Assembly: GCA_963754315.1 (NCBI GenBank) | Contig: CAVWFS010000020.1 | Span: 64,001-128,000, forward strand | DNA from: an uncultured Candidatus Rokubacteria bacterium | Lineage (GTDB): Bacteria; Methylomirabilota; Methylomirabilia; Rokubacteriales; CSP1-6 | Length of the DNA stretch: 64,000 nt | Reading direction: 5' to 3' | Part shown: piece after piece, positions 60,804-64,000 of the stretch | Position numbering within the stretch: position 1 is the first letter of the stretch | Layout of the letters: each line of letters starts with the position of its first letter | The notes under the pieces: model-generated | Told to the model about the DNA's origin: nothing | What the model saw: only the letters and a program-made list of their open reading frames with translations | Databases searched by the model: none | Made by a program: the position numbers and the translations under genes

Positions 60804-61664
60804 CTACAACAGGCCGGCGCGCTCGGCGGCTTCCACGATCCCGCCGCCCGTGGTTACGTCGGCGCGCAGCTGGTGGGTTGCGTGTGCCTTGACCTCGTCG
60901 GAGGCGTGTCCCATCGCGAACGCGCAGCCGGCGACCTGGAACATCGGGACGTCGTTCACCCAGTCGCCCACACAGACGACGTCCTGCATGTCCACGCCGT
61001 GGTGCGCGGCGATCCACTCGAGCGCGCTGCCCTTGGTGGCGCCGGGGGCGCGGACGATCATCGCCCAGTGCCCGAAGAACGCCTCCCGCTGCACCGGGAA
61101 CGTCACCGGCGCCACGAGATCGGTCGCGTGGGCCAGCGCGGCGGCGAGCGCGGCAATCTCGTCCCTCGTCCCCACCGCGATGACACCCGCCGTGTCCGAC
61201 CCGGGGTCCCAGTGCGGCGCCGCGGTCACGTCCTCGATGCGGCTGATGCAAGGCGTCCAGCCCCTGAGATACGCGGCGAACGGCACGCCCCGAGCGTCGT
61301 GGAAGATCTGATCGCGCCCGAGCACGAAGACGGCCGGGTTCCCATCCGCGAGCGCGGCCTGGAGCAGCCGGCCCGCGGGCGCGCCGAGCGCGCGAGACAC
61401 GAGGTTCCGGTCCTCGCGCACCGCCACGATCGCGCTGCCGTCGAGGCAGCCGATCGGCCCATCGAGCTGGAGGCTCCGCGCCACCTCCCGCGTCCCGGAG
61501 TACATGCGCCCGGTGACGATGGTGATGGCGATGCCACGGCGCTGCAGCTCGGCGATCGCGCGCCGGTCGGCCGCGTGAATCGCGCCGCTCCGATCGAGCA
61601 GGGTCCCGTCGAGGTCCGTGGCGAACAGCTTGTAGCGCGAGGGCGCCCGAGCAGGGGCTGTCAT
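60804..61664 (-). CDS. Cof-type HAD-IIB hydrolase
   Basis: TDLDGTLL, VTGR, TKG, GDWVND motifs. Confidence 0.9.
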   Translation of the reverse strand: MTAPARAPSRYKLFATDLDGTLLDRSGAIHAADRRAIAELQRRGIAITIVTGRMYSGTREVARSLQLDGPIGCLDGSAIVAVREDRNLVSRALGAPAGRLLQAALADGNPAVFVLGRDQIFHDARGVPFAAYLRGWTPCISRIEDVTAAPHWDPGSDTAGVIAVGTRDEIAALAAALAHATDLVAPVTFPVQREAFFGHWAMIVRAPGATKGSALEWIAAHHGVDMQDVVCVGDWVNDVPMFQVAGCAFAMGHASDEVKAHATHQLRADVTTGGGIVEAAERAGLL

Positions 61665-62668
61665 GGCGACCGTGGACGCCAGGGTACACCAGGATCGCGA
61701 CCGGCGACTTCACGCCCGGGCTCCCTGCTGTCTCGCGTCCCGCGGCTCAAGGGCCTCGGCGCCGCGGGCCCCGGCACCACCAGGCGATCGAGCGGGACCT
61801 CGAGCGCGCGCGCCAGCCGGAGGAGCGCGCCGATGGTGGGATTCTGCTTGCCGTGCTCGAGGCCGCTGATGTACGTGCGGTCGAGGCCCGCCTCGTCGGC
61901 GAGCTGCTGCTGCTTCCAGCCCCGGGCCGAGCGCAGCTCCTGCAAGCAGCGCCCGAGGCGCTCGAAGTAATCCTCTGCCGTGCCCGGAGACTCCGAGGCG
62001 GCGGCGGTGAGCTGCCGCGCCTCGTGCACGCCGGCGCGCGCGTCCAGCGCGACCGCATCGACGTCGAATGTCGTCGCCGCCCGCGGGCGCCCCCGCAAGG
62101 CTGAGCCGCCGGCGAGGAGCCGGGGCGGTGGAGTCACGCGACGCAGGGCCGCCGCGACCGCGCTGAGCGCGGGCAAGTGTTCCGCCTGGGTGACGGAGAG
62201 CGCGACGAGCTCGGGCCGGCGACGGCCGACGAACTCCACGAGGTCGGCCGTGGGGGTGTTGGCGCCGAGGTAGTCGATCACCCAGCCGTCGATCAGGAAG
62301 GAGTCGGCGACCATTCGCAGGCCCACTGCGTGCGGCTCGCCTTCCACGCACGCCAGCACCGCCCGCCGGCCGGACACGGGTCGCACGGTCAGGCCCTCGC
62401 GCAGTCGCTCCATCTGGCTCAGCGTGATCTCGGTCGCCAGGTGCTCATCCGCCACCGAGAGCCGGCGTGCGCGCCACCGCGCGCCGATCTCTGCCTGGGC
62501 GGGGGCGAGAAGATGCAGATAGATCTGCTCCGTCGTCAGGCCGCGGGCCCGCGCCTGCTCGACGACGCCGTCGGCGCCCGGAGCGTCGCCCCGCAGCAGC
62601 GCGTCGAGGTATCGCCGGTCGAGTGCCCCACGGCCATTCGTCCTGCCTCTTCCGTCTCGGCGTCTCAT
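61661..62668 (-). CDS. Cobalamin-binding regulator with C-terminal XRE-family HTH
   Basis: W-x9-EH (WRARRLSVADEH), EPHAVG, YLGANTP, LSVT, AGG; then QQQLADEAGLDRTYISGLEHGKQNPT; GAGGTG RBS before ATG 62668. Confidence 0.88.
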   Translation of the reverse strand: MRRRDGRGRTNGRGALDRRYLDALLRGDAPGADGVVEQARARGLTTEQIYLHLLAPAQAEIGARWRARRLSVADEHLATEITLSQMERLREGLTVRPVSGRRAVLACVEGEPHAVGLRMVADSFLIDGWVIDYLGANTPTADLVEFVGRRRPELVALSVTQAEHLPALSAVAAALRRVTPPPRLLAGGSALRGRPRAATTFDVDAVALDARAGVHEARQLTAAASESPGTAEDYFERLGRCLQELRSARGWKQQQLADEAGLDRTYISGLEHGKQNPTIGALLRLARALEVPLDRLVVPGPAAPRPLSRGTRDSREPGREVAGRDPGVPWRPRSP

Positions 62669-62729
62669 GGGTTCACCTCGCTGTCGATTATGTGCGACGG
62701 GCTCCCGCTTCCGTTCACGCGTGCTCCAA

Positions 62730-62800
62730 CAGAGTCGTTCAGAGTCGTTGTAGTTTATATTTGACATATATAGTTATCAGTGTAGTGTATATACAACTCA
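62730..62800. promoter_or_regulatory. Divergent promoter/operator region
   Basis: AT-rich island; TTGACA 62761-62766 and TAGTGT 62783-62788; repeats TGTAGT(T/G)TATAT at 62749 and 62781; tandem CAGAGTCGTT x2. Confidence 0.7.
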
Positions 62801-62835
62801 GATCGATGTGATCAGAGAACAAGGAGGAGGAACCG

Positions 62836-63330
62836 ATGCGCAGCATGCCGTTCATTCGTCTCGCCGTCGCCGTCACCACTCTGGGTCTGGTCTTCGGATC
62901 CGTTACCCCCGCTCGGACCGCGGACGATCGGAAGGACATCGTCGATACGGCCGTCCAGGCCGGCAGCTTCACGACGCTGGCCAAGGCCCTCACCGCCGCC
63001 GGGCTCGTGGAGACCCTGAAGGGGCCCGGGCCGTTCACCGTGTTCGCGCCCACGGACGCAGCCTTCGCGAAGCTGCCCGCGGGCATCCTGGATGGCCTCC
63101 TCGCCGACAAGGCGAAGCTCACCCAGGTGCTCACCTATCACGTGGTCCCCGGCACCGTCATGGCCGCCGACGTGGTCAAGCTCTCGAGCGCCAAGACGGT
63201 CCAGGGTCAGAGCGTGAAGATCACCACGAGCGGAGGCGTGAAGGTGGACAACGCCAACGTCGTGAAGACCGATGTCATCGCCACCAACGGCGTGATCCAC
63301 GTCATCGACGCCGTGATCCTTCCGCAATAA
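62836..63330 (+). CDS. Fasciclin (FAS1) domain secreted protein
   Basis: [33 protein letters not shown]; strong RBS. Confidence 0.95.
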
Positions 63331-63340
63331 ACACCCCCCC

Positions 63341-63374
63341 GGTCCGTCCCGCCGGAAGAGCGGCGGGACGGACC
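63341..63374 (+). terminator. Perfect 14-bp intercistronic hairpin
   Basis: GGTCCGTCCCGCCG-gaagag-CGGCGGGACGGACC; no strong U-tract. Confidence 0.6.
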
Positions 63375-63403
63375 CGATTCGTTCTGGAGATGAGGGAACG
63401 CGG

Positions 63404-64000
63404 ATGAGTCTCGATCCAACGCCGGCGCGCGGGCGCACCACCGTCGTGCTCTTCACGCGCGATCTGCGCGTGCACGACCAGCCCGCGCTCTCGGAGGCGG
63501 CGCACGCGGGCGAGCGGATCGTTCCGCTCTTCGTGCTCGACGAAGCGTTGATCGCGAGCGGGTACGCGCGGCCCAACCGGCTCCAGTTCCTCCTCGCGTC
63601 GCTCGCGGATCTCGACGGCTCACTGCGAGCGTGCGGCGGACACCTCGTCGTCCGCCGGGGCGACCCCGCCCGCGAGGCTCTCGCGGTCGCCCGGGCCACC
63701 GGCGCGCACGCGGTGTTCGCTAGCGCCGACGTGAGCGCCTTTGCGCAGCGCCGCGAGCGACGTCTCGCCGCGGCCTGTGCCGAGCATGGCGTGGAGTTCC
63801 GGACGTTCCCGGGCGTGACGGTCGTGGATGCCGGCGCGGTGCGACCGGCCGGCGGCGATCACTTCCGCGTCTTCACGCCGTACTGGCATCGATGGCGAGC
63901 GTTGCCGATGCGCCCTCTCGCGCCGCCGCCCCGGCGCATCGCGGTGCCCGATGGTCTCGCGCGCGGCGTCGTGCCGCGGCTCTCGGAGCTCACGGTCGGG
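63404..64000 (+). CDS. phrB: Photolyase/cryptochrome family protein, N-terminal part (runs off the window)
   Basis: Own translation: VVLFTRDLRVHDQPAL, IVPLFVLD, RLQFLLASLADLDGSL, FRVFTPYW; absent from the ORF track because no stop is in the window. Confidence 0.88.
   Translation, partial: MSLDPTPARGRTTVVLFTRDLRVHDQPALSEAAHAGERIVPLFVLDEALIASGYARPNRLQFLLASLADLDGSLRACGGHLVVRRGDPAREALAVARATGAHAVFASADVSAFAQRRERRLAAACAEHGVEFRTFPGVTVVDAGAVRPAGGDHFRVFTPYWHRWRALPMRPLAPPPRRIAVPDGLARGVVPRLSELTVG

Follow-up and report, generated by a model that had tools for sequence, protein, structure and literature searches.

The window examined here is a stretch of 64,000 nucleotides from an uncultured Candidatus Rokubacteria bacterium (contig CAVWFS010000020.1, positions 64,001 to 128,000), and the regulator gene at 61661-62668 on its minus strand encodes a 335-amino-acid protein with a cobalamin-binding domain and a C-terminal XRE helix-turn-helix (HTH). 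The combination of a B12 photoreceptor signature with an XRE domain of the type found in restriction-modification (R-M) controller (C) proteins suggests an adenosylcobalamin (AdoCbl)-bound dark repressor of photoprotection genes that would be released by light, a reading to which we assign a probability of about three in four. The initial annotation had noted W-x9-EH and E-x-H-x2-G...SxT...GG ahead of the XRE HTH, and fasciclin and photolyase genes running divergently across an AT-rich spacer. Pfam matches and the located residues agree with the former, and the 167-bp spacer between regulator and fasciclin, with a GC content of 0.47 and a core (62740-62805) of 0.32 against 0.67 for the window, agrees with the latter.

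Architecture of the regulator

The open reading frame (ORF) starts at an ATG preceded by a GAGGTGA ribosome site, and Pfam places B12-binding_2 at residues 18-89 (E 3.6e-15), B12-binding at 102-207 (E 2.2e-16) and HTH_3 at 242-296 (E 5.8e-15). The four-helix cap (B12-binding_2; 62402-62617, minus strand) carries G62-x-x-W65-x9-E75-H76, and the Rossmann B12-binding domain (62006-62365, minus strand) carries E111-x-H113-x2-G116-x41-S158-V-T160-x26-G187-G188, with spacings of 41 and 26 residues and H113 as the predicted lower axial ligand. W-x9-EH and ExHx2Gx41SxV/Tx22-27GG have been given as defining AdoCbl-dependent CarH, W-x9-EH being the feature that separates it from B12-independent CarA (PMC8156234; this and the other papers cited are represented here by excerpts). 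All four elements of the SignatureFinder signature for light-responsive cobalamin-binding domains (GxxW, EH, GxxH and GxxxP) are present, the last two as G110-x-x-H113 and G135-x3-P139; the signature was validated spectroscopically and correctly predicted green-light AdoCbl photolysis in four of four tested proteins (PMC11796333).

The AlphaFold model (mean predicted local distance difference test score 83.5) comprises a four-helix bundle, a Rossmann fold and a five-helix XRE domain, with low confidence in a short linker (224-230) and in residues 301-334, and it matches the B12 domains of photocobilin, CtMerR and TtCarH. By sequence and fold together, the closest solved relatives of the B12 part are CtMerR (8JBS, E 1e-24), the photocobilins and TtCarH, and since all of these are proven photoreceptors we counted the likeness in favour of light sensing. 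R66 occupies the position of TtCarH H132 and is the same residue as in CtMerR, which has R there and yet is switched from tetramer to monomer by light (PMC11796333); histidine is found at this position in 48 of the 71 genome-locus members and, among the cluster representatives, in 50 of 138. The XRE domain (61778-61978, minus strand) bears the recognition motif D263-R264-T265-Y266, and its best Protein Data Bank matches are C.AhdI, C.BclI and C.Esp1396I.

The predicted operator

Palindromic expectation maximisation on 68 upstream regions of family members, three near-duplicates having been dropped, yielded de novo an 18-bp C-box-like palindrome, TGTnGAATATATTCnACA, which was recovered at widths of 16, 18 and 20 and not at 17 or 19. 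Its log-likelihood at 18 bp was 269 versus 21-35 in 10 dinucleotide shuffles, for which fewer starts were used, and a site of at least 8 bits is present in 58 of the 68 regions. Adjacent sites lie 30-33 bp apart in 42 of 63 pairs (27 of them at 31 bp), as against a mean of 3.4 and a maximum of 12 in 2000 random placements; when the Bdellovibrionota clade is left aside, 17 of 36 adjacent pairs have this spacing.

The palindrome has the layout that would be expected from the DRTY helix, judging by its match to a solved C-protein operator. In the 18-bp O_M duplex of C.Esp1396I the TG/CA ends are read by R35 and GAC/GTC by T36 and R46, while the central TATA is bent by D34, Y37, N47 and T49 (PMC3488213). 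The de novo motif reads TG..GAC-TATA-GTC..CA over 18 bp with its elements at the same positions, and nine DNA-contact residues of C.Esp1396I (R17, Q24, D34, R35, T36, Y37, S39, N47 and T49) are kept in the XRE alignment. R46 corresponds here to Q275, which matches the relaxed G of GTC in the motif, and E25, which mediates contact between adjacent C-protein dimers (PMC3488213), corresponds to Q254, which matches the wide operator spacing.

Three sites are predicted around the spacer. O1 (62749-62766, 14.9 bits) ends in TTGACA, the likely -35 of the fasciclin-photolyase promoter, and O2 (62781-62798, 15.1 bits), 32 bp away, covers a weak -10 candidate at 62783-62788. O3 (62682-62699, 12.5 bits with the leave-out matrix described next) sits over a CATAAT -10-like hexamer (62687-62692, minus strand) just upstream of the regulator and, from this position, is likely an autoregulation site. 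A consensus promoter scan of 61500-63500 returned no sites, and the -10 candidates were assigned by eye. A matrix retrained on 62 regions that included no Rokubacteria-like locus ranked O2 first and O1 second in the 6.5 Mb of the bacterium's own genome, the pair scoring 29.9 versus 12.5 for the next-best pair; 62730-62800, the part of the spacer that the initial annotation had singled out, holds both of these best sites.

For a held-out set we took 79 metagenome loci (the best of 389), of which 69 had 200 bp upstream and 42 were left after those similar to the training regions or to each other were removed. A site was present in 36 of the 42 (block-shuffled mean 3.6, maximum 9) and a pair in 12 (none in 100 shuffles). 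In a Binatia-type group the regulator, whose recognition helix has diverged, is an internal gene of an operon and precedes crtE-crtI-crtB in it, and at these loci the best pair of the whole locus falls in the spacer heading the operon in 10 of 10 cases. A strict paired pattern had no match in five Bdellovibrionota genomes, where it is too strict even for the known arrays. Two Bipolaricaulota-like loci (L010:10405 and L011:10384) carry a near-perfect operator (19-20 bits) inside the regulator coding sequence, by chance or as extra autoregulation.

Family distribution and gene linkage

The union of a photoreceptor-type module with a DNA-binding family other than MerR, in reversed order, had been proposed from this one gene; it is real and defines a large family. 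Of the 150 top-ranking 50%-identity clusters, found by hidden Markov model alone, 138 span both domains. Altogether 175 of 7999 scored proteins matched at E <= 1e-10, and the W, E, H and H residues are kept in 118 of the 138 full-length representatives, an unbiased count. A genome scan confirmed 175 stretches; 70 of the best 80 that were returned are full-length, and the full-length members carry 16 phylum labels, among them Chloroflexota (SAR202), Bdellovibrionota, Planctomycetota, Bipolaricaulota, Armatimonadota, Binatota and Acidobacteriota. The patterns of that scan contained EH and QN, so these columns are biased in it, and the complete light signature in 57 of 71 genome-locus members is to be read with EH as part of the search pattern. 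ESM Atlas holds seven near clusters with the same Pfam families, and databases label members 'MtbC1/XRE' or 'cobalamin-dependent protein'. Viral contigs contained no relatives, and plasmids gave B12-domain matches only, none of the nine covering 80%. On a B12-domain tree from a quick search, whose deep nodes are open, proteins with the B12 domain alone fall among the full-length ones, with no support for that placement, so the fusion may have arisen once or more than once.

The suggested association with photolyase, fasciclin and carotenoid genes was borne out: photolyase, fasciclin, crtI or crtB lies within 10 kb at 23 of the 45 full-length loci outside the Bdellovibrionota-type clade. Any of nine markers is found at 34 of these 45 loci, versus 50 of 3047 20-kb segments of the bacterium's own genome, and a marker gene is present at 19 of the 24 held-out loci of at least 5 kb. 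The 45 loci are not independent and make up about 20 separate groups on a quick tree. R-M genes are absent from the recurring neighbours.

Several loci hold further genes. At L024:216-1259 and about 23 loci akin to it, in the Bdellovibrionota-type clade, a triple operator array (31 + 31 bp) lies between the regulator and a conserved gene facing it, whose product of 330-350 amino acids has a J domain at its N terminus and a stretch weakly resembling STM3941. Recurring unannotated regulon genes (L018:11953-13795, L005:9667-9855) encode a 60-85-amino-acid ORF, a 140-amino-acid ORF and a protein of 370-410 amino acids with a weak DICT domain. At a Dehalococcoidia locus (L008:2272-3126, L008:3260-3329) a heliorhodopsin gene is divergent from the operator array heading a light operon, and at L082:1542-3353 the gene of a MEDS-B12 protein has a separate XRE gene immediately after it, which may be a two-gene counterpart.

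Candidate targets far from the regulator

A family member 39% identical to the regulator occurs in the complete genome of Ca. Uabimicrobium amorphum (G207, locus L022), so the prediction is testable in vivo; we take this to be a cultured organism. There the regulator has no marker neighbour and its own site is weak (9.2 bits). A strict pattern matched 17 times in this genome versus 8 for the control, and inspection of all 17 found only two paired at 30-33 bp, one before a fasciclin gene and the other between crtY-crtI-crtB and a rhodopsin gene. This microbial rhodopsin (L245:11551-12288) has D-T-K at the proton-pump motif positions, like ESR; its gene lies across from crtY-crtI-crtB, two operator pairs falling in between, and has an RPE65-type oxygenase gene close by.

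In another genome (G206) five of seven strict-pattern matches fall inside a 7-kb island, and in G208 and G211 the strict single pattern had no matches, the matrix later finding sites in both. Photolyase loci far from the regulator were inspected in four genomes outside the Bdellovibrionota, and four of six had a site or sites in the heading spacer: a pair at folE/SDR-photolyase, single sites at a photolyase and at a photolyase/crt locus, and a pair at an SDR-cryptochrome operon. Pseudomonas LitR regulons likewise include FolE and photolyase (PMC9758184). Across several phyla, mostly uncultured, the palindromes are thus placed at what are likely promoters of photolyase, fasciclin, carotenoid and rhodopsin genes.

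Comparison with known systems

Judged on its domains and operator, the family would resemble CarH in working, yet it is neither CarH (no MerR, another operator, a score below cut-off) nor a C protein. With CarH and class I LitR (Thermus, Myxococcus, Bacillus megaterium) and with CtMerR it shares the four-helix cap and Rossmann B12 domain, W-x9-EH and the base-off His motif, as well as photoprotection targets and an operator overlapping the -35. In contrast to CarH, where a MerR winged helix is N-terminal, the XRE domain is C-terminal and the regulator has no MerR match; the NCBIfam CarH model NF052513 scores 64.8 bits against a cut-off of 400 and is matched over profile positions 82-250 only. 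CarH reads tandem 11-bp direct repeats (PMC9304148), whereas the sites here are 18-bp palindromes 30-33 bp apart and tandem 11-bp repeats (TnnACA) occur in only 2 of 71 upstream regions. The histidine beside the tryptophan that serves the bis-His light state of TtCarH (H132) is R66 in the regulator. No CarH scored above cut-off in any of the five genomes tested.

The likeness to C.AhdI, C.BclI and C.Esp1396I extends over the DRTY recognition motif, most DNA-contact residues, the TG-end operator, the GAC/GTC-like boxes and the central TATA. C proteins differ in being small, stand-alone and mostly beside R-M or mobile-element genes, whereas the regulator is fused behind a B12 sensor and lies beside photoprotection genes; R46 and E25 are both Q, and the C-protein operators are adjacent in a 35-bp site while those here are three turns apart. 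Photocobilins (SasPcob, AbDPcob) likewise place a signature-bearing B12 domain N-terminal to another module and have high fold similarity. In the photocobilins, MEDS-CBD and AerR, however, the B12 domain is joined to a bilin-binding globin or a cyclase, or to no second module, rather than to a DNA-binding domain; the photoglobin/biliverdin domain of the photocobilin is an XRE domain in the regulator, and AerR acts through CrtJ according to the excerpts consulted. The JGI label 'MtbC1' would make the regulator a methyltransferase corrinoid protein; we rejected this, as NF047996 scores 36.5 against 370 bits and the regulator has W-x9-EH and is not a stand-alone carrier.

Our literature search found no paper on the B12 plus C-terminal XRE architecture or its operator, though the bare architecture may be listed in figures or a review. 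Excerpts of PMC11796333 mention signature-bearing domains that have HTH and other output modules attached at one end or the other and do not name XRE, and those of PMC8717448, PMC10979010, PMC8123684 and PMC2632904 do not describe the architecture. All B12 photoreceptor transcription factors in the literature consulted pair an N-terminal MerR domain with direct repeats. If our reading is true, the same light sensor has been coupled with an unrelated DNA-reading domain whose operator geometry is different, the operator offers a ready means of charting light regulons in phyla whose gene regulation is almost unexplored, and the short near-symmetric operator pair with a 300-residue protein is a candidate green-light switch orthogonal to CarH/CarO.

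Proposed mechanism and alternative explanations

In the dark, the regulator would bind AdoCbl and oligomerise through its B12 domains, and this oligomer would hold the paired palindromes over photoprotection promoters until light broke the Co-C bond, loosened the oligomer and freed the promoters. The B12 oligomer would make up in avidity for a weak XRE dimer, whose weakness is suggested by the short last helix of the AlphaFold model. In a dark tetramer, each of two HTH pairs could occupy its own palindrome, the two palindromes being three turns (about 31.5 bp) from each other on the same DNA face, a proposed geometry that would explain the site spacing, and the regulator would repress its own gene through O3. 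We infer the cofactor, the tetramer, the sign of regulation and this self-repression. The bacterium's genome (G000) encodes CobS and a PduO-type cobalamin adenosyltransferase, and no other W-x9-EH domain occurs in it, its other B12-cap proteins, including a 228-residue corrinoid protein and MetH, being without this motif.

A number of points weigh against a light-released repressor. No experiment on any family member was found in the literature. TtCarH H132, R176 and D201 are R66, P112 and N137 in the regulator, so its oligomer may differ from that of TtCarH; we take R176 and D201 to be residues of the head-to-tail dimer. The 32-bp spacing may partly reflect -35/-10 geometry where a site ends in TTGACA, and the spacer of a second regulator copy in the same genome holds a weak pair only (5.9 + 4.3 bits). 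The nine markers behind the count of 34 in 45 were picked after the neighbours were seen, and 11 of the 45 loci have none, 4 of these being on 20-kb loci. Control of photorepair, as proposed in the initial annotation, is backed by the linkage at 23 of 45 loci. The regulon extends beyond photorepair, and of the 25 loci in the Bdellovibrionota-type clade only one holds a marker gene. The triple arrays of that clade occur only between the regulator and the DnaJ-domain gene, six longer stretches upstream of Bdellovibrionota photolyases hold no pair, and sites are missing from two of the six distant photolyase loci; within Ca. Uabimicrobium, two of the three photolyases have no site.

It is possible, though unlikely, that the same operators serve a corrinoid that senses a cue other than light (B12 supply, upper-ligand state, oxygen or redox), or that a partner protein switches the regulator, as a short LOV protein does for class II LitR. 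The altered H132, R176 and D201 positions fit this, W/E/H/H is no longer complete in 20 of the 138 representatives, regulon members such as DUF1295, cyclopropane synthase/DUF1365, SDRs and SOUL would suit general photo-oxidative stress too, and LitR homologues acting via a LOV partner are known (PMC9758184). The regulator nevertheless keeps the W-x9-EH that separates AdoCbl-dependent CarH from CarA, no partner gene is conserved across the loci, and photolyase and rhodopsin targets function in light only. We consider it very unlikely that the protein is a light-controlled activator or dual switch, modelled on the C proteins, which activate from one operator and repress from the next (PMC3488213) and which its HTH resembles; with the -35 inside O1 and the -10 region under O2, RNA polymerase would be blocked, E25 is Q254, and the sites are 31-32 bp apart rather than adjacent. 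That the palindromes are back-to-back promoter hexamers or the sites of another regulator, with the gene a passenger of light islands, we regard as highly unlikely. Many sites do end in TTGACA or begin with TGTCAA, and a degenerate single-site pattern was at chance level, no better than the control, across five Bdellovibrionota genomes. Against this, the motif accompanies the regulator under more than ten phylum labels and has the layout expected from the DRTY helix, triple arrays without TTGACA exist, no other spacer of the bacterium's genome gives a comparable pair, and CarH and its repeats are as scarce as described above.

A more specific form of the light-released repressor, which we put forward tentatively and at slightly less than even odds, is a separate class of B12 photoreceptor-repressors in which AdoCbl controls a C-protein-type XRE domain and the tetramer formed in the dark grips two C-box-like palindromes, spaced by three helical turns, with the promoter bent around it. 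Such a class would replace CarH in SAR202, Rokubacteria, Planctomycetota, Bipolaricaulota, Binatia and others, and would gate rhodopsin and carotenoid/retinal genes in Ca. Uabimicrobium.

Neighbouring genes and genomic island

The first predicted target, at 62836-63330 on the plus strand, encodes a single-domain fasciclin (FAS1, E 3e-41) whose N terminus looks signal-peptide-like by eye, and is followed on the same strand by a DNA photolyase of 461 amino acids with both photolyase domains (63404-64000, continuing to 64789). In Mycobacterium kansasii, fasciclin proteins and photolyase are light-induced (PMC9861118). Past the photolyase, the plus strand encodes SRPBCC, an aldehyde dehydrogenase, two crtI-family desaturases, an acyltransferase, a glycosyltransferase and a cytochrome c; then come a second regulator copy and, divergently, a DUF2867 SDR, TIGR01777 and RudS (DUF523/DUF1722). 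RudS removes ultraviolet A-sensitive 4-thiouridine (s4U) from tRNA and is often in light-responsive operons (PMC11417400).

On the other side, the HAD hydrolase at 60804-61664, with which the interval of the initial annotation began, was tried as part of the system and excluded because it has no match in 163 related loci; isocitrate dehydrogenase also has no match among these. The regulator stop overlaps the HAD hydrolase start, and the last 35 codons of the regulator (61661-61775) form an unconserved, low-confidence tail, probably marking the island edge. The closest homologues of the regulator (91% and 72%) are Rokubacteria/Methylomirabilota records, and the island is patchy: of 201 genomes in the phylum, 3 have full-length matches, its own included (11 candidates scored per genome). 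In related strains the stretch from the regulator through the spacer to fasciclin is covered by contigs of two DNA sequencing runs, and this speaks against an assembly artefact; two RNA runs gave small shares, mostly fasciclins of other organisms, with no bearing on expression.

The second regulator copy (about 74140-75040 on the window's scale; contig C20 about 138140-139040; L001 14140-15040; minus strand) is frameshifted and divergent from a small ORF, a SOUL remnant, the DUF2867 SDR, TIGR01777 and RudS, and in genome G028 both copies are intact in unchanged order. Across C20 128800-139300 (L001 4800-15300) most genes from the photolyase to the second regulator are many-frameshifted, although short stretches share 85-100% identity with the intact genes of G028; indel errors of long reads would explain this most simply, gene decay being a less simple alternative. 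The carotenoid block (L001 5300-11700; L003 1065-7342), running from the aldehyde dehydrogenase through the two crtI-family genes and the acyltransferase to the glycosyltransferase, has no adjoining phytoene/diapophytoene synthase, and the one crtB-like match in the bacterium's genome is away from it on contig C18. In the gap between fasciclin and photolyase, at 63341-63374, a perfect 14-bp stem with a 6-nt loop and no T run was seen by eye, and it may stabilise the fasciclin mRNA or lower photolyase expression.

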